From NCBI RefSeq assembly GCF_026586625.1, contig NZ_JAODIW010000008.1, positions 93,332 to 157,331 of the forward strand: 64,000 nucleotides of DNA. The letters run 5' to 3'. The position numbers were made by a program, and so were the translations under genes. This stretch comes from Halobium salinum (GTDB lineage Archaea; Halobacteriota; Halobacteria; Halobacteriales; Haloferacaceae). Below are positions 21,121 through 43,019 of this stretch, one piece after another; position 1 is the first letter of the stretch, and each line of letters begins with the position of its first letter. Below the pieces are notes generated by a model. The model ran no database searches and was not told where the DNA came from. It worked only from the letters and a program-made list of their open reading frames with translations.

Positions 21121-21300
21121 ACGGAACCGAACCGGTTCCGAGTGGACTCCGGACCGGCCCCGACCAGAACCGACACCGACTCCGGCTCCGAATCGGCTTC
21201 GGGCCGGCTCCGAACCAACTCCGAATCGGCTTCGGGCCGGCTCCGAACCAACTCCGAATCGACTTCGGACCGACTCCGACCGACTTCGGACCGACTACGC
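21121..21300. repeat. Intergenic tandem repeat (about 33-36 nt unit ccgaatcggcttcgggccggctccgaaccaact, about 3 copies) rich in small hairpins
   Basis: Two perfect unit copies at about 21186-21251 then diverged copies through about 21300, plus the palindrome GGAACCGaACCGGTTCC at 21122-21139. Each unit contains CCGAA-tcggc-TTCGG. Confidence 0.6.
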
Positions 21301-23340
21301 CGACGCCGCCCGCCGCGCCGCGACCGCCGAGGGCCGAACGACGTCGGCCGCTCCGGGAGCGGTAGCCACACTCCCGGGAGCGCCGATTACACCCCCGGAG
21401 ATGGACTGGCGGCCGTCGTCGGGAGCGTCGCGGTCGGTCCGCGTCGACGCCCGCAACGCGGACCGGTCGACGAAGATTACGACGTGCTCCCCCCAGAGCT
21501 TGAACCGGTGTTCACGCTTCTCGTACCCCGGGAGGTGCGGTTCGATATCCGACGCGTTCCACCGGTAGGCGACCACGACCGGCGGGGCGTCGTCGAGCAC
21601 CGCCGCGGTCGAGGCGTTCGGGTGCGAACTCGTCACGTTCGCGCCGTAGGATTCGAAGTACCACGGGATCGGGAGCCGGCTGTGCCAGGCGGGACCGCCG
21701 GGTGGCATCCGCTGGAGGCTGGATTCGTCTTTCACGTAGAACAGCGCGTCACTCATGTCGGACCGGTCGCAGGCTCCACCCGCGGGGTTGCAGGTGCCGA
21801 AGAACAGCACGTCCTCGCCCGGGTTGGTCCGGGAGACGCGCTCGACGTCCGCCAGCGTCTCCTTCAGGTCGTTCTCGGGCTGGGCCCACTGGAGTAGCTC
21901 CTTCTGGTCCTCGCTCGCGGCGTTCACGTAGGTCGCGTTGGCGCCGACGACCCCGACCATCGCGGCGAGAACGACGAGTGCGGCGATACCGGTGCCGACC
22001 GCGTCGTCGACGGAGAGCGAACGCCGGGCGACCCGGTAGACGTACCCGCCGCCGACGCCCGCCGGGATGGCGAAGGCGACGACGACGTGCACCGCGGCCC
22101 ACGGCGCCTGGATGTCGGTCGCGATGGGGTAGCCGACGAGCGAGGCGACGCCCCAGTACATCGAGAACGCGACGAGGTCGCGCGGGCGGTCCTCGCCGTA
22201 CCCGTCGGCGACGAACCCGATGAGCGCGAACACCAGCAGGACGCCGGAGCCGTACACGAGCGTCTCGACCAGGTCCTTCGCGTAGGGCGCGTAGTCGTGG
22301 CTCTGGTGGGTCCCGGACGCCCACGTCGAGTAGAACTTCTCCCACGAGCCGACGGTCGCCGTCTCGAACACCCCGGGCAACTGCGTGGGGTTCGCGAGCG
22401 CCGTCCACAGCTCCGGGCGCGGGGCGTAGAAGAAGACAGTGACCGCGAGGAACGCGAGCACGGCCCCGACGGAGTAGACGCCGACGAGGCCGACGCCCGT
22501 CCACAGGTCGCCGGCCCACGCCGACAGCCGGCGCCTCGTCCGCCGGAGTTCGCCCGCGAGGACGGCCCTGACGTTCAGGAGCGGCTCCGTCTCGGATTCG
22601 GCCTCCCCACCCCAGTCCGCGTCCGCGCTCGGGCCGGCGTCCTCGCCTCCGTCCGGAACCGACGGCGGGGTCGATTCGGCAGCGTGGGTCGGGGACCGAC
22701 GTGACTCCGACGCCGACCTCGCCTCGCGCGTGCGTCGGACGAGGTAGTGGTCGAAGAGGAGGACGCCCGCGCCGGCGAAACAGGCCAAGTAGAGCAGGCC
22801 GTTCTCCTTCGCCGCGAGGCCGGTCGCGAAGGCGGCGCCCGCCGGGACGAAGTAGGCGGGGTTGCGCCGGTCGATGCCGCGGACGACGAAGCCGAGCGCG
22901 AACACGGAGAACACGGCGACGATGACGTCGCTGCGCATGAACCGCGAGTAGTAGACGAGCAGGGGGTCGGCGGCGAGAAACAGCGAGAGCGCGACCGTCT
23001 CGGCATTTCTGAGCCGGTCACGGAAGAGGAGGGCGGCGAGGGGGAACAGCCCACCGACGACCGCGACGACGAGGCGGGCGCTGAAGTCGGTCGGCGGGAG
23101 GACCGTGAACACGTAGTCGTTGACGACCGGGAGGAAGGGTCCGTGGATGATGGGTCGGTAGAAGAACTCCCCGTTCTCGTGGTACCGGAGAATCCAGTAG
23201 CCGACCCGACCTTCGTCCCAGTGCATGACTCGCGCGCCGAGGCCGACGAGGCGGACGGCGAGGGCGAGTGCGGCCACCGCGAGCACCCCGAGTGCGGTCG
23301 CATCGAGGCCGCCGCGGGAGCCGACTCCGTCGGTTCGCAT
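21295..23340 (-). CDS. Multi-pass membrane glycosyltransferase, GT-C fold (PMT_2/ArnT-like; TIGR03663/Agl23- or AglS-type)
   Basis: ATG at 23338-23340 (MRTDGVGSRGGLDATALGVLAVAALALAV…). First-loop HWDEGRVGY matches the GT-C DE-type motif. At least 10 TM segments and a large C-terminal soluble domain. The upstream 290 aa of the 973 aa ORF is Arg-rich junk. Confidence 0.55.
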   Translation of the reverse strand: MRTDGVGSRGGLDATALGVLAVAALALAVRLVGLGARVMHWDEGRVGYWILRYHENGEFFYRPIIHGPFLPVVNDYVFTVLPPTDFSARLVVAVVGGLFPLAALLFRDRLRNAETVALSLFLAADPLLVYYSRFMRSDVIVAVFSVFALGFVVRGIDRRNPAYFVPAGAAFATGLAAKENGLLYLACFAGAGVLLFDHYLVRRTREARSASESRRSPTHAAESTPPSVPDGGEDAGPSADADWGGEAESETEPLLNVRAVLAGELRRTRRRLSAWAGDLWTGVGLVGVYSVGAVLAFLAVTVFFYAPRPELWTALANPTQLPGVFETATVGSWEKFYSTWASGTHQSHDYAPYAKDLVETLVYGSGVLLVFALIGFVADGYGEDRPRDLVAFSMYWGVASLVGYPIATDIQAPWAAVHVVVAFAIPAGVGGGYVYRVARRSLSVDDAVGTGIAALVVLAAMVGVVGANATYVNAASEDQKELLQWAQPENDLKETLADVERVSRTNPGEDVLFFGTCNPAGGACDRSDMSDALFYVKDESSLQRMPPGGPAWHSRLPIPWYFESYGANVTSSHPNASTAAVLDDAPPVVVAYRWNASDIEPHLPGYEKREHRFKLWGEHVVIFVDRSALRASTRTDRDAPDDGRQSISGGVIGAPGSVATAPGAADVVRPSAVAARRAASA

Positions 23341-23504
23341 ACCCGGTACCTCCGGACCGACGACTACAACTCTTGTGCTCTGCGTCGGCGAGAGCGGACG
23401 GGGATGCGCCTCCGACACCGTCGCGTCGCGCAGACCGCCGTAGCGGCCTCGGACGGCGCTTAGCCGGTGCATAGTAAACCCCGACGCGCCGGAACCGTCG
23501 GTGC

Positions 23505-24143
23505 ATGCGAAGACGCCGCCTCCTCGGAGCCCTCGGCGCACTCGTCGGACTGGCCGGCTGTGGTGCCGGTACCGACGGTGGGTCGACGGTCCACACCGTC
23601 GGCCCGAACGCGACGAGCGACACCGACGAGGGCGCCGCCGACGCCGGCGCCGAAGGGACGACTGCGGACACGACCGCCACCGCGACCGGGACGGACGGGT
23701 CGAGTGGGACAGACGAGACGAGTGGGACGGGCGAATCGAGCGGGACGAACGGGACCGGCGGCGCGGGCACGGGTGACGGGTCGGCTTCCGACGGCGCCGC
23801 TGGTGCGAGCGGGAACGGAACGGGGAACGGAACGGGCGGAGGCGGACCCGACGAGAGCGGCGGCGGCCCCGGGAACGGCTCGGGGAGCGGTGCAGGCGGG
23901 GGCCCGAACGGCACCGGTGCCGGAGGCGGTACCCGGACCGGGGCGAACGGGACCGGCGCCGCCGACGGTGGTGGGACGAACAACGGGACGACGGGCGACC
24001 GGGCGCTCGGCAACGGGACGAGCGACGGAACAGTCGGCAACGGAACGGCCGGTAACGGAACTGGGGGCACCGCCGGAGGGAACGGGACCGGGGACCGGAG
24101 CGAAGACGACACCGGGAACGGCTCGAGCGGCGGCGCGTTCTAG
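23505..24143 (+). CDS. Tat-secreted lipoprotein, G/T/N/D-rich low complexity with about 15 N-x-T/S sequons
   Basis: Twin-arginine plus lipobox: MRRRRLLGALGALVGLAGC. The remainder is ...NGTGGAGTGDGS…NGTGNGTGGGG…NGSGSG…NGTGAGGG…NGTGAADGGGTNNGTTGD…NGTSDGTVGNGTAGNGTGGTAGGNGTGD…NGSSGG. Confidence 0.6.
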   Translation: MRRRRLLGALGALVGLAGCGAGTDGGSTVHTVGPNATSDTDEGAADAGAEGTTADTTATATGTDGSSGTDETSGTGESSGTNGTGGAGTGDGSASDGAAGASGNGTGNGTGGGGPDESGGGPGNGSGSGAGGGPNGTGAGGGTRTGANGTGAADGGGTNNGTTGDRALGNGTSDGTVGNGTAGNGTGGTAGGNGTGDRSEDDTGNGSSGGAF

Positions 24144-24252
24144 TCGGCCGCGGTCGGGGACGGTGTGGGATTCGCCAACAGACATATGCCGACCCCCGCC
24201 GTACCGTAGGTTGCAACCTGAGACGTACGCTTCGTCTACGATGGAGCGGTCG

Positions 24253-34722: not shown

Positions 34723-35142
34723 TCAGTGGTGTGGCTCGTCGGGACGCGGGTCCTCGAACTCGAGCGTACACCAGTGACAGAACCCCATCTCGGGGTCGAC
34801 GGGCCGGGCACAGGCGGGGCAGGTCGGTCCCTCGGTCCCCGCGTGACTCCGCCGGCCGAGGACGTACGCGTCGAATATCGAGAGCGAGAGCAGCACGAAC
34901 AGTGTGACGACGACCCACCGGGGCCACTGCTGGACGTCGAGCAGGAACCCCGGCTCCATGAGTCGGGCCGGGTCGAACGCCATCGTGAGGAGTACCAGCG
35001 AGGCGCCCGCAGAGAGCGCGAACCAGGCGACGGCGCGTCGCCACTCGCGTAGGAAGAGGTGGCCGAGGCCGGCGACGCCGACGACGGCGCCGATGGCGCC
35101 GATCATGGCGGCCACGAACGCACGACGGCTCGTATCGGTCAT
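34723..35142 (-). CDS. Small membrane protein with C-terminal zinc ribbon
   Basis: 139 aa from the internal ATG (MTDTSRRAFVAAMIGAIGAVVGVAGLG…). Three TM segments, then CPACARPVDPEMGFCHWC. Confidence 0.45.
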   Translation of the reverse strand: MTDTSRRAFVAAMIGAIGAVVGVAGLGHLFLREWRRAVAWFALSAGASLVLLTMAFDPARLMEPGFLLDVQQWPRWVVVTLFVLLSLSIFDAYVLGRRSHAGTEGPTCPACARPVDPEMGFCHWCTLEFEDPRPDEPHH

Positions 35143-35249
35143 TGCACGTCCTACGAACCGGATGTGGGATAAAGACCGGGGGTCCGAGACTCGAAACTGA
35201 TACTGCCAGGGGTCGGCGGCGGCGCCGTCGACAGCCGCGACGCCGTCGC

Positions 35250-35942
35250 TCAGTCGCCCCCGAGCAGGTCCACCAGCGTCCGGAGCGTCCCGAGGTCGTA
35301 CTGGCCCGGCGCGGTGGCGTCGGCCGGGTCGACCGGCGCGTAGCCGATTCGCGACCCGTAGACGGGGGCGACGGCGCGGGTGTGCCGTCCCGGCTCCCCC
35401 ATCGCCATCGTGGCCGGCGTCCCGCCGTCGGCCGCGACCGCGTAGGTCGCCTGCAACAGCGCGAGCGCGTCGCCGCGGTCGGTCGCCGTCGTCGCGAGCT
35501 TCCCCACGTCGCCGGCGTCGCAGGCGGCCGAGAGCTGTTCGCGGAGCGCGTCGGGACGCGCCGTCCCCTCGAAGTCGTGGACCGAGGCGACGACGGCGAC
35601 GCCCGACTCCCGGGCGTGCTCGCGCAGCGCGTCCGCCTCCGCCGCGTCGACGCCGCCCCGTCCCTCGAAGCAGGCCGCTTCGACGTCGACCGCCTCGACG
35701 GCGTCGTGGTCGACCGCCTCGGCGAGGACGGCGAGTCGCCCCTCGTCGTCGGCCTCGCCGCCCTCCCACGTCGCCCGGTTGGTCGCGAGAAGCGGCAGCG
35801 TCCCGTCGTAGTCGTCGAGCGCCGCGAGCGGGTCGTCCGCGAGGTCCATTCGGAACTCCACGGCGTCAGCGTCGTCGCGGGCGGCGGCCTCGTCGTCGAG
35901 GTCCGCCGTCGAGGCCGCGAGCACGAACGAATCGAACTCCAT
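35250..35942 (-). CDS. aroD: 3-dehydroquinate dehydratase, type I
   Basis: MEFDSFVLAASTADLDD…VEFRMDL…LLATNRATWEGG… matches the AroD type I pattern. Internal ATG used. Confidence 0.8.
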   Translation of the reverse strand: MEFDSFVLAASTADLDDEAAARDDADAVEFRMDLADDPLAALDDYDGTLPLLATNRATWEGGEADDEGRLAVLAEAVDHDAVEAVDVEAACFEGRGGVDAAEADALREHARESGVAVVASVHDFEGTARPDALREQLSAACDAGDVGKLATTATDRGDALALLQATYAVAADGGTPATMAMGEPGRHTRAVAPVYGSRIGYAPVDPADATAPGQYDLGTLRTLVDLLGGD

Positions 35943-36002
35943 AGTCCGACCTCCGGCGCCGGCGACAAAACGCTGTCTCACCCGCGCGGACGAAGCGCCG
36001 GC

Positions 36003-36150
36003 GCGGGACGGGGTGGGAAGCGGGGAAGAAGGAAAAGAGAAGAGCGGAGGGAATGGGAGGAAAGCGGACAGGGAGGAGAGCAGAGGGGAGGAAAGCGGAC
36101 AGGGAGGAGAGCAGAGGGGAGGAGAGCAGAGGAGAGGAAAACGGAGGGGA
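36003..36150. repeat. Polypurine (GA-rich) tract with a 31-nt direct repeat (ggaaagcggacagggaggagagcagagggga x2)
   Basis: Seen directly in the sequence. Lies between the MTase gene 3' end and the aroD 5' end. On the transcribed (minus) strand it is a CT-rich tract. Confidence 0.5.
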
Positions 36151-36161
36151 TACCGGGCGCG

Positions 36162-37331
36162 TCACCCCTCGAAGGGGGTGTAGTCGACGCGGTACCGACG
36201 GGCGGGTGCGGTGGTCTCGCGGGTGCCACCCTCGCCCGAGTCGGTGTCGTCGATGCGGTCGACGCCGTCGACGGCGTAGAACCGGATGCGGCGCTCCTGC
36301 TTCGTGACGACGGGCACGTCGTAGTGGACCGCCTCGTAGTTCGGGTCGCGGTCGCGGTCGGCGAGGAAGTCGCGGTGTCGCTCGAGGCGGGCGCTGAGGT
36401 GCCGGTCGGAGCGCTCGGCGAGACCGCTCCGGCGGTCGTCGAAGGCGGCGACGAAGTCGGGGTCGAGTTCGTAGCCGACCGAGTCACGAGCCGCGAGCAT
36501 CGCGGCGAGGGTCGTCGTCCCCGTCCCCCAGAAGGGGTCGAGGACGGTGTCGCCGTACGCGGAGTACATCCGAACCAACCGGAGCGGGAGTTCGAGGGGG
36601 TACGCCGCAGAGCGGTCGCGGACGTCCGTCGCCCCCTCCGATTCGGTCGCGTCGTCCGCGTCACCCGCTCCCCCGGTGCCCCCCGCTCCGGTGCCGGCTC
36701 CGCTGTCGGCCGCGTCCTCGCGGTCGGCGAGCGTCTGCGTCGTCCCGCCCAACTCCCACAGGTCGGAGAACCAGCGGTTGCGCTCCTCCCAGAAGAAGGC
36801 GCTCTCGTAGCGGGCGTCGTCGCCGGGGGGGAACCGGCGGGTCTCCCCCTTCCGGAAGACGAGGACGTACTCGTGTTCGAGCGTGACGTAGGCGTTCGAG
36901 GGGAGCATCCCCGAACCCATGAACTTCGTGAGGCTGTTGGTCGGCTTGCGCCAGAGGATATCGGGGAGCGCTCGTAGGCCCCGTTCACGGAGGGCGGCGA
37001 GGACGCGGGCGTGATTGGGGTACTGCCGGAACCCGTCGTCGAGCGAGCGGGTCGCGTCGCCGACGTTGACGCAGGCGATTCCCCCCGGCGCGAGCACCCG
37101 AACGACCTCGTCCCAGACGGCGTCGAGCGTCTCGTGCATCCGCTCGAACGCCGTCTCCCCGTCGCCGCGGTCGAGCGCGTCCCGGACCGCCGGCTCCTGC
37201 TCGGCGAACAGGTCGTCCCACATCTCTATCATCGGGTACGGCGGGGAGGTGACGACGAGGTCGACGGCGCCGTCGTCGACGGCGGCCATGTCGGCGGCGT
37301 CGGCGACGTAGAGGCGGTGCTCGGTTCGCAC
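36162..37331 (-). CDS. Site-specific DNA methyltransferase (N4-cytosine/N6-adenine, beta-class), apparently orphan
   Basis: Motif IV DLVVTSPPY lies near the N-terminus and motif I (VLDPFWGTGTT) near the C-terminus, the beta-class order. A low-complexity insert (…DSGAGTGAGGTGGAGDADD…). No restriction endonuclease candidate is adjacent. Confidence 0.8.
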   Translation of the reverse strand: MRTEHRLYVADAADMAAVDDGAVDLVVTSPPYPMIEMWDDLFAEQEPAVRDALDRGDGETAFERMHETLDAVWDEVVRVLAPGGIACVNVGDATRSLDDGFRQYPNHARVLAALRERGLRALPDILWRKPTNSLTKFMGSGMLPSNAYVTLEHEYVLVFRKGETRRFPPGDDARYESAFFWEERNRWFSDLWELGGTTQTLADREDAADSGAGTGAGGTGGAGDADDATESEGATDVRDRSAAYPLELPLRLVRMYSAYGDTVLDPFWGTGTTTLAAMLAARDSVGYELDPDFVAAFDDRRSGLAERSDRHLSARLERHRDFLADRDRDPNYEAVHYDVPVVTKQERRIRFYAVDGVDRIDDTDSGEGGTRETTAPARRYRVDYTPFEG

Positions 37332-37574
37332 TGCGTAGCGGTTGGTGTGGAGGGTACTAGTCTTTTCGCCGAGTTGGGGGGTACTCTGAAAACGGCGGCG
37401 TGTCGACGGAGACGGAACTGTACCGGCGTCCCACGGAGGCCCCCGCTCCCTTCCGGAGCTTCACCCTACGTCGGCTGGCCGGTTAGTCGCCGTTGGCGCC
37501 ACGAACGGTGAGTCGTCGCTCGCAGTCGCGTCCGGTTCCGACAGCCCGATGTGGGTCGGCGTCGGACCGCGACC

Positions 37575-38129
37575 ATGACCACTCGAGTCGGCGTCGGCAG
37601 CGGCAACCCGGTGAAGCGACGGGCGGTCGAAGCGGTGTTGAACGACGGGAACGGCGGCTTCGCCGAGGCGTCGGTGGAGGCCGTCCCGGTCGACTCCGGC
37701 GTGAGCGAACAGCCCGAGGGCCACGCGGAGACCCTCGAAGGCGCCGAGAACCGCGCGCGGGCCGTCGTCGAGGCGGGGTCGGACCTCGGAGTCGGCGTGG
37801 AGGGCGGCGTGGCGACGTTGGACGCCGGTGCCGGAGACGCCCGAGGCGACCTCTACCTCGTCATGTGGGCCGCCGTCACCGACGGCGACCGCTGGGGCCG
37901 GGGGTCGGGGCCGGCGCTCGCGCTCCCCGCTGACGTCGCCGAGCGCGTGCGCGACGGCGAGGAACTCGGCCCGGTGATGGACGACACGCTCGGCGAGGAG
38001 CACGTCGCGCGAAAGCAGGGTGCGGTCGGGGCGTTCACCGGCGGTCGCGTCGACCGCGCGGACGCGTTGGCGACGGCGGTCGCGGGGGCGCTCGGACCGT
38101 TCGTCACGGACCACTACCGAACGCGCTGA
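37575..38129 (+). CDS. Inosine/xanthosine triphosphatase (YjjX/DUF84 family non-canonical NTP pyrophosphatase)
   Basis: MTTRVGVGSGNPVKRRAVEAVL…DSGVSEQPEGHAETLEGAENRARAV… matches the YjjX family pattern. Confidence 0.65.
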   Translation: MTTRVGVGSGNPVKRRAVEAVLNDGNGGFAEASVEAVPVDSGVSEQPEGHAETLEGAENRARAVVEAGSDLGVGVEGGVATLDAGAGDARGDLYLVMWAAVTDGDRWGRGSGPALALPADVAERVRDGEELGPVMDDTLGEEHVARKQGAVGAFTGGRVDRADALATAVAGALGPFVTDHYRTR

Positions 38130-38145
38130 CGGACGCCGCCGGGAC

Positions 38146-40035
38146 TCAGTCCTGGGCGGACTCCGCGCCCTCGACCCGCTCTCCCACGTCCGCGGACTCG
38201 TCGACCGCGGTGGTGAGCGAGACGTTGAGCGACGCCATCGAGACGACCCCGCCGGCGAGGGTGACGAGGTTCTTCACGGCGTGGTCGACGAACGCGGCGC
38301 CGACCACGACGGCGGGAGAGATGGCCGGGACGAGGACGACGACGAGCACGGTGAAGGCGGCCTCGTACAGTCCGATGCCGCCGGGCGACAGCGGGAGCAC
38401 CTTCGCGAGGTTGCCGACGCTCACCGCGAAGAAGGAGACGGCGAGCAGGTAGCCGAGCGGGACGCCGGCGGGGATTCCGAACGCCAGCAGGACGAGGAAC
38501 GCGGTGAGCACGTCGAGCGTCCAGATGGCGAGACTCGACAGGCCGACGCGGGCGAACGCGCCGGGCGTGCCGGCCGCCCGCTGGAGGTCGCCGACGAACC
38601 GCTCGACGACCCCGGCGACCATGTCCGCGTAGGAGTCGTCACTGAGGCGAGCGACGACCGGGCGCACGAGGTTGCGCTCGGAGCGCGCGGAGGCGACGAT
38701 GGCGACGACGGCGCCGACCGCGGCGACGCCGACGAACGCGGCGACGCCGGCCGCGACGCGAGCCGCGTTCTTGTCCACGTCGCCGACGGTGCCCGAGCCG
38801 GTGATGCCGACGATTAGCTCCGTGGTGCGGCCGGTGGCGACGAGTCCGACGAAGACGAGGCCAGCGAGTGCGACCAGCGAGAGCAGGTCGAACACCCGCT
38901 CTGCGGCGAGGGAGGCGAACCCGGAGGCGTACGGGATGCGCCGGCGGGCCTTCACGACGTACGCGCGCACGGCGTCGCCGGCGCGGGCCGGGAAGACGAG
39001 GTTCCCCGTCTGGCTGATGAAGATGGCCCCCGTCAGGAAGCCGACCGACTCGCGATACCCCAACTCGGAGAGGATGTCGCGGTAGCGCGTCCCCCGGAGG
39101 GGCCACGAGAACAGGTAGACCAGCGCCGCGCCGGCGATGAGCGCCGGGTCGGCCTCGCTGGCGCGGGCGACAACCTGCTCGAAGTCGATGTACAGCGTCA
39201 TCAGCCCGACCGCGACGACCGTCATCAGGATGCCGACGGCCATCGAGACCTTCCGAGTGATACGGGGTTGAACCGACAGCTCCCACCACGTCCGGAGAAC
39301 CTGACTCCCCATCCCGAGCACGTCGCGGACGAGGTCGACTTTCGTGTCACCCTTCGGCGTCCAGTCGACCGGGAACTCGGCGACGCGGTACCCCCGACGC
39401 TGAGCGCGCACGAGCAGTTCGGTGTCCCAGAACCAGTGGTTGTCGCGGATGTCGTGGTGGAGCACCTCGAACGCCTCCCGCGAGACGGCCTTGAATCCGC
39501 ACTGGTGGTCACGTAGGGAAGACCGGAGGAAGAGCCGCACGAACCCGTTGTAGACGCGGCTCGGGACGCCCCGTTTCGGCGGTCGGTCCGCGGTGCGGCC
39601 GGGCATCCAGCGCGAGCCGGTCGCCACGTCGGCCTCGCCGGAGCGCACCGTCTCGACGAGCTCCTCGAGGTGACGCATGTCGGTCGCGAGGTCGGTGTCG
39701 AAGTACACCAGCACGTCGCCGTCGGCGGCGGCGAAGGCCCGCTCCAAGGCGCCGCCGCGACCGAGGCGCTCGTCGCTGTGGAAGTGTCGGACCCGGGCGT
39801 CCTCGGCGGCGAGGCGACCGGCGATGTCGGGCGTGGCGTCGTCACAGCCGTCCTCCGCAACCATCACCTCGAAGCTCCCGCTCGGAAGGAAGCGTGAGAG
39901 CGTCGACAGCGTCTCGCGGACCGTCCCCTCAATGGTCTGCGCCTCGTTGTACGCGGGGAGGACGACGCTCACCTCGACGCTCGCGGGGGACCGGCGAGCC
40001 TCAGGTGCGTCGGCCGCGGCGGCCGGGCCACTCAT
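38146..40035 (-). CDS. GT2 dolichyl-phosphate hexosyltransferase fused to flippase-like (lysyl-PG synthase TM-type) membrane domain; AglD-like
   Basis: The N-terminal GT-A domain (VSVVLPAYNEAQTIEGTV…) has DxD motifs (EDGCDD and YFDTDLA). The C-terminal roughly 330 aa has about 8 TM segments and a PGGIGLYEAAF motif. Internal ATG (MSGPAAAAD…) used. Confidence 0.65.
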   Translation of the reverse strand: MSGPAAAADAPEARRSPASVEVSVVLPAYNEAQTIEGTVRETLSTLSRFLPSGSFEVMVAEDGCDDATPDIAGRLAAEDARVRHFHSDERLGRGGALERAFAAADGDVLVYFDTDLATDMRHLEELVETVRSGEADVATGSRWMPGRTADRPPKRGVPSRVYNGFVRLFLRSSLRDHQCGFKAVSREAFEVLHHDIRDNHWFWDTELLVRAQRRGYRVAEFPVDWTPKGDTKVDLVRDVLGMGSQVLRTWWELSVQPRITRKVSMAVGILMTVVAVGLMTLYIDFEQVVARASEADPALIAGAALVYLFSWPLRGTRYRDILSELGYRESVGFLTGAIFISQTGNLVFPARAGDAVRAYVVKARRRIPYASGFASLAAERVFDLLSLVALAGLVFVGLVATGRTTELIVGITGSGTVGDVDKNAARVAAGVAAFVGVAAVGAVVAIVASARSERNLVRPVVARLSDDSYADMVAGVVERFVGDLQRAAGTPGAFARVGLSSLAIWTLDVLTAFLVLLAFGIPAGVPLGYLLAVSFFAVSVGNLAKVLPLSPGGIGLYEAAFTVLVVVLVPAISPAVVVGAAFVDHAVKNLVTLAGGVVSMASLNVSLTTAVDESADVGERVEGAESAQD

Positions 40036-40221
40036 TGGGAGCCTCTCACCCCGGCGAGTGTAAGAACTTTCTGTCTCGCCGGAGGTCGGCCGTCTCCCGC
40101 TCCGAGATGCGCTGTGGCGACGAGACGCTCCGTCCGGACGGTTCGACCCCGAAAACCAGTTGTCCAGATTATCAATCAGTACGCCGAACATTTTTCACGG
40201 TGGACTGTGAGAGGCCAGTCG

Positions 40222-40858: not shown

Positions 40859-41977
40859 ATGGCACCCGAAACCGAAACGGACGCAGCCCCGAACGCAGCC
40901 GCGGACGACGCCGAGGCTTCGAGTTCCGACGCGGCGTTCGGCGACGAGTCGAGCGCCGCCCAGCGAACCGCGGTCGGCGTCAAACTCGGCAGTACCCGGA
41001 CCGTACTCTCGATGGGTCGCGACGAGGAACGACGCGTCGTGAAGACGCTCACCTGTCTCGCCACGTACGAGGACGCCCTCACGGGCGACGAGCGCGTCCT
41101 CTACGGCGAGACGGCCGCCGCCGAGTACCCCGACCGCGTCCAGTACATGCTCCGCTCCGGCCTCCCGGAGGACGACGAGCGCGCCGAACTCACCGAGCGC
41201 TTCTTCGCCGAACTGCTCCGTTCGGAGTCGGTTCCCGAGGACAGCGGCGTCGTCTACGCCATCCCGACCATCGACAACGAGCCCGGGCTGGAGAACCTCG
41301 GCGCGGTCGTCGAGGACAGCGAAATCGGCTCCGAGGGCGTCCGTTCGTACCCCGAGTCGCTCTGTGGCGCCATCCCGGCGATGGGCGACGGCCTCGAAGC
41401 CATCAACGACATCTTCGTCTCCATCAACCTCGGCTCGACGAACCTCGAGGCCTGTGCGTACCGCCGCGGCGAGCAGCTCGCCCCGTGGGCGACGGGCGCC
41501 GTCACCGGCGTCGGCGTCGACCGGGCCATCACGGGCTACGTCGAGGAGGAGACCCAGCGCCGGGTCACCGTCGACCAGCAGACCGCCCGCGAGTACAAGG
41601 AACAGCACGCCGACTTCGTCGACTACGAGCCGTTCACGGACATCGTCCAGCAGCCCGGCGGCGGCTCCCACGAGTTCACCATCGAGTGGGCGGTCATGGA
41701 CGCCGTCGACGAGTTCGTCGACGCCGCCGTCGAGGCCGTCGCCGACGACTTCCTCCCCGGCGTCGCCCAGGAGCACGTCCGCGTCTACCGCCGCGCCCTC
41801 GACCGACCCATCGTCCTCACGGGCGGGATGGCCTGCATCCCCGGCCTCGTCGAGGAGTTCGAGACCCGTCTGAGCGAGACGCTCGACCGCGAGGTCACCT
41901 GCGTCGCCCCCGACGACCCCGAGCTGGCGGCCGCCGAGGGCGCCCAGCGCATCGCCGAGCGCCTGCTCGAGAACTGA
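40859..41977 (+). CDS. Actin-fold (ASKHA superfamily, MreB/ParM/actin-like) ATPase
   Basis: Phosphate-1 VGVKLGSTRTVLS, phosphate-2 VSINLGSTNLEACAY, and adenosine motif VLTGGMACIPGLVEEFETRLSE. 372 aa with an acidic N-terminus. Confidence 0.55.
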   Translation: MAPETETDAAPNAAADDAEASSSDAAFGDESSAAQRTAVGVKLGSTRTVLSMGRDEERRVVKTLTCLATYEDALTGDERVLYGETAAAEYPDRVQYMLRSGLPEDDERAELTERFFAELLRSESVPEDSGVVYAIPTIDNEPGLENLGAVVEDSEIGSEGVRSYPESLCGAIPAMGDGLEAINDIFVSINLGSTNLEACAYRRGEQLAPWATGAVTGVGVDRAITGYVEEETQRRVTVDQQTAREYKEQHADFVDYEPFTDIVQQPGGGSHEFTIEWAVMDAVDEFVDAAVEAVADDFLPGVAQEHVRVYRRALDRPIVLTGGMACIPGLVEEFETRLSETLDREVTCVAPDDPELAAAEGAQRIAERLLEN

Positions 41978-41990
41978 GCTGAACCGACCG

Positions 41991-43019
41991 ATGGCCGCCG
42001 GCGCCGACGGAACGGACGGTCGTCACCCCGCCGAGAGCGACGCCGGCGGGGCCACCGGCGGCGACGCCGACGACGGTACCGACGCTACACCGGTCTCCGG
42101 TCCGGAGCGGTGGTGTTACGCCGGCGAGAAGCCCGTCGAGACCGTCCCGGTCGCGGACGGGTGGGCCGCCGTCACGACCCACCGACTCCTCCTCTCCGAC
42201 CCGAGCGACGGCGGGTCGAACCTCCTCGCCGTCGACCGGCCGAACGTGACCGACGTGCGCGTCGACGCGGCCGGCACGACGCGGTACCTCGAACACCTCC
42301 CCGACCTCGTCGTCTACACGCTCGTCCTCCTCGGCGGCCGGGCCGGGCTCGCCTTCGTCGACTTCGGTTCGACGCTGTCGACGAGCATCCCGTCGGGGAC
42401 CGGAATCGGCGGGCTCTCCTCGATGCTGTCGATGTTCCAGACGGGGTTTCGACTGCTCTCGACCGGCCTTCTGGTCGGCGGGGTCCTCTGTGGGGCCGCG
42501 GCGCTGGCGCTCGGTGGGCTCTACGTCCGCTCGCGGGAGCGGCGACTGGTCGTCGACCGCGCCGGCGACGAACCGCTCGAACTCCCGCTTCCGGACGGCG
42601 CCGTCGACGCCGGACGGCTCCGGGCGGCGCTCGGGCTGGACACCGACGCTCAGGGCGCCGGACCGAGCGCGCCGGACGAACCCAGCGCGAGACCTGTCGG
42701 CGCGAGCGGGACCGACGCCGCCGACACGCCGACCGGCGCCGACACGCGGAACGTCACTGACACGCGGAACGTCACCGACGTACCGACCGGCGTCGACACT
42801 CCGAACGTCGCCGACACTCCCGAGACTCGGACGGCTTCCGACGTCCGTGCAGACCCCGACCGTCGTCCCCCCGCCGACCGGGACGCCGCACCCGGACCGG
42901 ACGCGCCTGTCGCCGGTCGGGACGAGGAGGGCTCTGACGAGCCGTTCGACCTGAGCGAGTTCGAGCGGGCGGAGGCGTACGACTCGATAGAGTCGATTCC
43001 GCCGGACGAACGGCTCTGA
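41991..43019 (+). CDS. Membrane protein with N-terminal bacterial-type PH (bPH_2/GRAM-like) domain and disordered repeat-containing C-tail
   Basis: WCYAGEKPVETVPVADGWAAVTTHRLLLSDP…LLAVDRPNVTDVRVD… is PH-like. Two to three TM segments (…LVVYTLVLLGGRAGLAFVDF… and …LLSTGLLVGGVLCGAAALALGGLYV…). The tail carries …ADTRNVTDTRNVTDVPTGVDTPNVADTPE… tandem repeats. Starts 14 nt after the actin-like gene. Confidence 0.5.
   Translation: MAAGADGTDGRHPAESDAGGATGGDADDGTDATPVSGPERWCYAGEKPVETVPVADGWAAVTTHRLLLSDPSDGGSNLLAVDRPNVTDVRVDAAGTTRYLEHLPDLVVYTLVLLGGRAGLAFVDFGSTLSTSIPSGTGIGGLSSMLSMFQTGFRLLSTGLLVGGVLCGAAALALGGLYVRSRERRLVVDRAGDEPLELPLPDGAVDAGRLRAALGLDTDAQGAGPSAPDEPSARPVGASGTDAADTPTGADTRNVTDTRNVTDVPTGVDTPNVADTPETRTASDVRADPDRRPPADRDAAPGPDAPVAGRDEEGSDEPFDLSEFERAEAYDSIESIPPDERL

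Follow-up and report, generated by a model that had tools for sequence, protein, structure and literature searches.

A probable orphan CTAG methylase gene and an aglD-type gene in a conserved chromosomal segment of Halobium salinum

A 64-kb stretch of the genome of Halobium salinum, a member of the Haloferacaceae (contig NZ_JAODIW010000008.1; hereafter the window), encodes a DNA methyltransferase (MTase) and a fusion of a GT2 glycosyltransferase domain with a flippase-like membrane domain, with a single nucleoside triphosphatase (NTPase) gene between them. By sequence comparison, the MTase is an orthologue of HVO_0794, the haloarchaeal orphan CTAG N4-methylcytosine (m4C) methylase of Haloferax volcanii, and the fusion is an orthologue of H. 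volcanii AglD (HVO_0798). The favored explanation, with a probability of roughly 85%, is that the orphan CTAG methylase, the NTPase and AglD are three functionally unrelated housekeeping genes in one conserved haloarchaeal segment, and that their linkage reflects inheritance and not joint action. Both proteins are members of families already described, and the domain fusion of AglD, with its MprF-like flippase domain, has been known since a description in 2015.

In this explanation, the MTase would be a stand-alone beta-class enzyme that transfers the methyl group of S-adenosylmethionine (AdoMet) to N4 of the first C in CTAG, with no partner nuclease, and the middle gene would encode a DUF84 inosine/xanthosine triphosphate pyrophosphatase. 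The cytoplasmic GT-A domain of AglD (Asp-113/Asp-115, Arg-142, and the catalytic base Asp-204) would load dolichyl phosphate with a hexose from a nucleotide sugar. This hexose is mannose in H. volcanii. The fused membrane domain, of the MprF type, is predicted to assist in bringing the loaded lipid to the outer leaflet; there, a GT-C enzyme would attach the sugar to an N-glycan. The order aglD, NTPase, zero to two further genes, MTase, and aroD would have come down by descent in Haloferacaceae and a small number of additional lineages.

The MTase and the GT2 fusion are each 100% identical to annotated Halobium salinum proteins, and each has hundreds to thousands of full-length homologues; neither open reading frame (ORF) is therefore a chance feature. 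The coordinates, lengths and quoted motifs that an initial annotation, made from the sequence alone, had given for the two ORFs are all right.

The methylase and its predicted specificity

The MTase matches the N6_N4_Mtase family PF01555 over residues 23-296 (E 5.9e-35; 121.7 bits, cutoff 26.7) and scores 544 bits with the PADLOC Type II model MTase_II (PDLC03283). Its catalytic motif IV reads SPPY, a serine form that is typical of N4-cytosine enzymes. SPPY lies N-terminal of the AdoMet-binding motif I, DPFWGTGTT, so the motif order is that of the beta class, in which motif IV precedes motif I (Malone, Blumenthal and Cheng 1995), and the class assigned in the initial annotation holds. The 16 orthologues in the MTase alignment span different genera, and all of them keep SPPY and the motif I region.

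The closest solved structure by sequence is the putative modification methylase TTHA0409 of Thermus thermophilus (PDB 2zie; E 1.8e-31 over residues 5-193), a 297-aa protein without the conserved C-terminal extension that the haloarchaeal enzyme carries at residues ~300-389. A low-complexity insert, DREDAADSGAGTGAGGTGGAGDADDATESEGATDV, separates the target-recognition region from motif I. HVO_0794 and most orthologues lack it, and a comparable insert occurs in one Natrialbaceae sequence. An AlphaFold2 model built from the 16-sequence alignment had a mean pLDDT (predicted local distance difference test) of 51.5, too low for use.

The MTase is 63% identical to HVO_0794 (Zim) from end to end (E 2e-163). 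The two share PF01555, SPPY and FxGxG motifs in beta order, the conserved C-terminal extension, an upstream aglD, and the lack of an adjacent nuclease. The window enzyme differs in its 35-aa insert and its GTG start, and its gene is followed by aroD, whereas HVO_0794 is followed directly by DUF7575. In H. volcanii, Cm4TAG is lost when HVO_0794 is deleted along with HVO_A0006 and HVO_A0237, and the modification was assigned to HVO_0794 by homology with characterized CTAG methylases (PMC5867850). Those enzymes, M.MthZI, M.MjaI and M.BfaI, are reported to be Type II subtype-beta m4C methylases homologous to HVO_0794 (PMC5867850). m4C at CTAG has also been credited to the Halobacterium salinarum homologue (PMC7002104). 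The MTase most likely methylates N4 of the first C in CTAG on both strands, using AdoMet.

The composition of the window gives indirect support. CTAG occurs at five sites in the 64 kb, where a second-order Markov model predicts 43 (observed/expected 0.12), and it is the most depleted of all 16 palindromic tetramers; window G+C is ~70%. Depletion of CTAG has been reported for genomes that carry the Zim/HVO_0794 family (PMC6471742, PMC7002104). The identity to HVO_0794, the shared gene context and this depletion all favor the proposal of the initial annotation that the enzyme is a haloarchaeal CTAG m4C methylase.

The initial annotation also held that the MTase has no adjacent nuclease, and the screens agree. 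No restriction-nuclease Pfam domain was found in 17 flanking ORFs at 30.2-45.1 kb, and no PADLOC defense model matched any of eight MTase neighbors, leaving no nuclease by either method within ~6 kb of the gene. Over this distance there is thus no sign of the cognate REase (restriction endonuclease) that the initial annotation had named as counting against its reading. These ORFs span about a quarter of the 64-kb window; genes in the rest were called by third-codon-position G+C (GC3), and about a third of them were annotated with Pfam.

PADLOC labels the MTase as Type II, and CTAG methylases characterized outside Halobacteria, such as M.MthZI, are in restriction-modification (RM) systems (PMC5867850). 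It is nevertheless very improbable that the window enzyme is the modification half of such a system with its nuclease encoded elsewhere. The scanned neighbors yielded no nuclease or defense match, and the gene is flanked by aroD and the NTPase, with the MTase-aroD pair found again in 32 of 80 loci from other genomes. H. volcanii HVO_0794 has no cognate restriction endonuclease (REase) and can be deleted (PMC5867850). Of 217 Halobacteria genomes, 174 carry a member of the Zim family, which is treated as orphan and, unlike RM genes, is conserved vertically (PMC6471742). An orphan MTase is the more probable reading.

The five CTAG sites of the window include one at -29 to -26 from the MTase start codon, the expected position of a haloarchaeal TATA box. 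CcrM, a bacterial orphan methylase of Caulobacter, offers an analogue, since the ccrM promoter is subject to feedback by methylation. By this analogy, m4C at the promoter CTAG could modulate binding of TATA-binding protein and transcription factor B (TFB), making MTase expression methylation-sensitive and closing a CcrM-like feedback loop. CTAG is found at -26 to -30 in eight of 80 other loci, all from other species, against ~0.12 expected from site density. The site, however, belongs to a conserved CTA-containing element at the same position (GAAGGAGCTAAGG in Natrialbaceae), and given CTA there, the enrichment of CTAG is modest (9/51 versus 7.9% expected, p ~0.02, uncorrected for relatedness). 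Close relatives alternate between the two forms, with CTAG in Halegenticoccus soli and CTAA in H. tardaugens, and the Haloferax MTase promoter has a different, T-rich element without CTAG. Because of the conserved CTA core and the CTAG/CTAA alternation, autoregulation is considered unlikely. If true, it would suggest one role for this methylase in Halobacteria.

The AglD-like fusion protein

The GT2 fusion is 70% identical to H. volcanii AglD over 97% coverage. The nine AglD residues that were tested by mutagenesis or highlighted by Kaminski and Eichler (PMC2877612), Asp-110, Asp-112, Asp-133, Arg-139, Arg-152, Asp-173, Gly-177, Asp-195, and Asp-201, are all kept in the window protein (9/9). 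Those required in H. volcanii AglD (Asp-110/Asp-112, Arg-139, and the catalytic base Asp-201) correspond to Asp-113, Asp-115, Arg-142, and Asp-204. Window aglD and HVO_0798 also have DUF7123, HTH_HVO_0163, Band_7 and NTPase genes in common as flanks, although the window aglD block is inverted relative to Band_7-HTH-DUF7123. Identity, residues and synteny together identify the fusion as an AglD orthologue, in line with the AglD-type GT2 and flippase-like architecture recognized in the initial annotation. The NCBI name of this copy is just "flippase-like domain-containing protein".

The motifs EDGCDD, FDTD and PGGIGLYEAAF are all found in the fusion. The initial annotation had taken the first two as DxD motifs; FDTD contains the experimentally defined DXD (Asp-113-Thr-114-Asp-115), while EDGCDD is not the DXD. 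The aglD ORF extends past the ATG at 40035 to 40191. The NCBI model and the N-termini of homologues both support this ATG, and the A/T-rich sequence TTCTTACA lies ~30 nt upstream of it.

The closest solved structure to the glycosyltransferase domain is the Pyrococcus furiosus dolichyl-phosphate (Dol-P)-mannose synthase 5mlz (E 3e-13), followed by ArnC and GtrB (1e-7 to 8e-5). This resemblance is consistent with a polyprenyl-phosphate acceptor. All three structures resemble the window GT-A domain but are without PF03706. The combination of PF00535 and PF03706 is present in 120 of the 120 best homologues listed, so the fusion is not nearer to GT2 families that lack the flippase-like domain, an outcome that the initial annotation had named as counting against AglD identity. 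Membership in AglJ (TIGR04182; 63.9 bits, cutoff 325) and in the haloarchaeal Dol-P hexose transferase family (NF041391; 57.7 bits, cutoff 375) was rejected.

The C-terminal domain contains at least six strongly hydrophobic segments. Its 330 residues are matched by the MprF family domain (PF03706/COG0392; arCOG00899) and also by TIGR00374, and Makarova et al. [quoted passage not shown] The partner of this domain is a glycosyltransferase in AglD and a lysyl-phosphatidylglycerol synthase in MprF. Unlike that of MprF, the lipid substrate in AglD would be Dol-P-hexose, and flipping by AglD is a prediction.

In H. volcanii, the final mannose is loaded by AglD onto a separate dolichyl phosphate, AglR takes part in membrane crossing, and AglS transfers the sugar (PMC3871713, PMC5867893). 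aglD is the sole gene of this pathway outside the agl cluster (PMC3871713, PMC5867893). Its position within a housekeeping segment is one of several observations which would fit a protein that is AglD by descent but whose Dol-P-hexose is not destined for the terminal position of the S-layer N-glycan; it might use a different sugar, serve O-glycosylation, or fill a general pool. AglD orthologues are 67-85% identical across many genera, while S-layer glycans differ even inside Haloferax (PMC5867893). One database entry calls a Haloferax orthologue "dolichol-P-glucose synthetase". An Agl23-family gene also lies 14.7 kb from aglD in the window, and in Haloarcula, Agl23 is the putative flippase of Dol-P-hexose for both N- and O-glycans (PMC11182771). 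Such a role is possible but unlikely: every mutagenesis-defined AglD residue is kept, synteny backs orthology with HVO_0798, and the experimental data for the AglD family concern terminal mannose only (PMC2877612, PMC3871713).

The Agl23-family ORF scores 374 bits with TIGR03663 (cutoff 126) and also matches PF13231 (PMT_2); its first ~300 codons are probably untranslated. The putative flippase role is that of Haloarcula hispanica Agl23 (PMC11182771), and H. volcanii has no such gene less than 10 kb from aglD.

Linkage of the methylase and aglD across Halobacteria

The initial annotation had stated that methylase-aglD linkage is reported for a model haloarchaeon and suggested that it may be conserved synteny rather than chance. 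The linkage does exist in H. volcanii, where the genes run Band_7, HTH, DUF7123, AglD, NTPase, one for a periplasmic binding protein, TFB, MTase, and DUF7575. HVO_0794 is encoded at L001:14728-15822 (the H. volcanii locus) and is separated from HVO_0798 by three genes, compared with the NTPase alone in the window. No such report was located: in the literature searched, no paper was found that describes aglD-methylase linkage or names both HVO_0794 and HVO_0798, and the two main methylase papers (PMC5867850, PMC6471742) make no mention of aglD.

To survey the linkage, one genome per species was scanned with the 16-orthologue MTase alignment, which confirmed 570 relatives. Eighty loci with 10-kb flanks were used, and their flanking genes were typed by tblastn with the window proteins as queries; in six of the 80, the upstream sequence was too short to judge the presence of aglD. 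aglD lies upstream of the MTase, on the same strand and within 10 kb, in 29 of the 80 loci. Haloferacaceae-type loci, 25 in number, account for 24 of these, and the other five are from Halomarina rubra, Haloarcula pellucida, and three uncultured lineages. The 32 Natrialbaceae-type loci all lack aglD in the 10 kb around the MTase, as do the five loci of Haloarchaeobius and those of Halococcus and Halomicrococcus. The NTPase accompanies the MTase in 24 of the 80 loci. In 32 loci, aroD comes immediately downstream of the MTase in the same orientation, at a distance of 7-270 nt in all but two of them, and this adjacency is slightly wider spread than that of MTase and aglD, as it includes Halococcus and Halomicrococcus.

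Two arrangements indicate that the MTase and aglD are separable. In Natrarchaeobaculum, the MTase adjoins the SecY/ribosomal-protein operon, and a contig with a Natrialbaceae-assigned AglD carries DUF7312-NfeD-Band_7-HTH-DUF7123-AglD-NTPase-TFB-aroD complete, with the MTase missing. The aglD neighborhood is thus an old conserved segment to which the MTase belongs in some lineages only. Compared with other Haloferacaceae, the window block aglD-NTPase-MTase-aroD-DUF7575 (34723-40035) is inverted as a unit relative to Band_7-HTH-DUF7123. The synteny suggested in the initial annotation recurs, though in certain lineages only, and has the look of inherited order. Because the linkage is lineage-restricted and separable, it is taken as inherited gene order and not as a functional unit. 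The two genes are also likely transcribed separately, since an opposite-strand gene lies between them and each has its own upstream region.

Several points weigh against this explanation and its component assignments. CTAG specificity in the window rests on 63% identity to HVO_0794, and the wider homologous group includes members that best match the REBASE motifs CATTC and CCCGGG (PMC6471742). The nuclease screen was local, which leaves room for a distant REase. The flippase role of the AglD C-terminal domain is predicted, and the sugar role of AglD is known from H. volcanii only. The aglD-MTase-aroD core is kept without Band_7, HTH and DUF7123 in Haloplanus, Salinirarus, Halomarina, and Haloarcula pellucida, and it was inverted as one unit in the window. 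Mild selection for the aglD-MTase linkage may therefore exist, with the core outlasting its flanks.

In another reading, the MTase and AglD would form a selected functional module, for example as two determinants of self-identity acting through DNA methylation and surface glycosylation. Besides the persistence of the aglD-(NTPase)-MTase-aroD core where outer flanks differ, work on Haloferax mating fits this idea: the influence of cell-surface glycosylation is among the subjects of one paper (PMC5496957), and that of RM systems among the subjects of another (10.1101/2020.06.06.138198). A module of this kind is nonetheless highly unlikely. A gene on the opposite strand intervenes, with zero to two more unrelated genes (TFB, periplasmic binding protein) in other species, and the linkage is missing in all 32 Natrialbaceae-type loci, in Haloarchaeobius, and in Halococcus. 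The separable arrangements described above and the lack of any paper found naming both H. volcanii genes also speak against it. Inherited order of unrelated genes remains the preferred account.

Neighboring genes and significance

Table 1. Features of the methylase-aglD segment and its surroundings in the window
Feature	Position	Strand	Evidence or remark
DNA methyltransferase (MTase), 389 aa, GTG start	36162-37331	-	ORF; PF01555
Catalytic motif IV SPPY, aa 29-32	37236-37247	-	Translation; invariant in 16 orthologues
AdoMet-binding motif I DPFWGTGTT, aa 265-273	36513-36539	-	Translation; D265, P266, F267, G269-T273 invariant in 16 orthologues
35-aa Gly/Asp/Ala-rich low-complexity insert of MTase, aa 203-237	36621-36725	-	Alignment gaps
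CTAG site upstream of MTase	37357-37360	.	Expected haloarchaeal TATA-box position
DUF84/NTPase_I-T inosine/xanthosine triphosphatase	37575-38129	+	PF01931 E 3.1e-45; TIGR00258 120 bits (cutoff 117)
AglD orthologue, 629 aa from ATG at 40035	38146-40035	-	PF00535 and PF03706; AglD identity
GT2 (GT-A) catalytic domain, aa 23-190	39466-39969	-	PF00535 E 6.5e-26
DXD motif D113-T114-D115 (H. volcanii AglD D110-T111-D112)	39691-39699	-	Alignment
Flippase-like domain LPG_synthase_TM, aa 267-595	38251-39237	-	PF03706 E 6.4e-40; TIGR00374 79.5 bits (cutoff 43.2)
aroD, type I 3-dehydroquinate dehydratase, directly downstream of MTase	35250-35942	-	PF01487 E 4.4e-38
Purine-rich MTase-stop/aroD-start spacer	36027-36150		Tandem repeat
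FlaD/E-like gene, 175 aa	40222-40749	+	C-terminal Arch_fla_DE domain, PF04659 E 3.8e-21; probable start 40222
Salactin gene	40859-41977	+	PF25229 E 1e-175
342-aa ORF	41991-43019	+	Two hydrophobic segments; repetitive Thr/Asp/Pro-rich tail
Agl23-family ORF	21295-24216	-	TIGR03663; PF13231

The NTPase gene is the single gene between the MTase and aglD; it is divergent from the former and convergent with the latter, and its product is 60% identical to that of the H. volcanii gene adjoining AglD. On the other side of the MTase, the spacer between its stop and the aroD start includes a tract that is 92% purine on the + strand over 100 nt; no other stretch of the window is as strand-asymmetric. Within the tract is a tandem repeat of a 31-nt unit, GGGAGGAAAGCGGACAGGGAGGAGAGCAGAG, in 2.4 copies with a 97% match. 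No purine-rich tandem repeat was found in the same MTase-aroD spacer of 28 other loci, and the repeat is thus specific to Halobium salinum. Scanning the entire window with Rfam, gathering thresholds applied, gave no match; its intergenic regions are therefore without a known RNA element.

As a result of the block inversion, aglD now abuts a pair formed by a FlaD/E-like gene and the salactin gene, which begins 109 nt downstream of the FlaD/E-like gene. In all 13 metagenomic salactin loci that could be assessed, the two genes are likewise neighbors in one orientation. Of four genomes checked, three (Haloarcula marina, Natronocalculus, and Halorhabdus) have the pair as well, and Halobacterium hubeiense lacks it. 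The loci that bear on the pair are L085-L097 and L100-L102. A divergent ParA/MinD-like ATPase gene lies upstream of the FlaD/E-like gene in L086-L089, L100, and L102, and a CheW-domain gene follows beyond it in all four loci that are long enough (L087, L088, L100, and L102). The published account of salactin describes synteny as poor and says nothing of FlaD (PMC10746226). Judging from these gene arrangements, the FlaD/E-like protein may be an unreported salactin partner that links salactin to the polar/chemotaxis machinery.

The 342-aa ORF begins 14 nt past the salactin stop and has no Pfam, NCBIfam or PADLOC match. Weak homologues of it follow salactin in three of the 13 metagenomic loci, and an orf43880-like gene occupies this place in three others.

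The promoter CTAG, the FlaD/E-like-salactin pair and the nearby Agl23-family gene are small leads for specialists. The linkage of the methylase and aglD is real but inherited in part of the Halobacteria, and it is not to be taken as a functional module. The main value of these findings is correct annotation, as both genes are orthologous to experimentally studied genes of H. volcanii.

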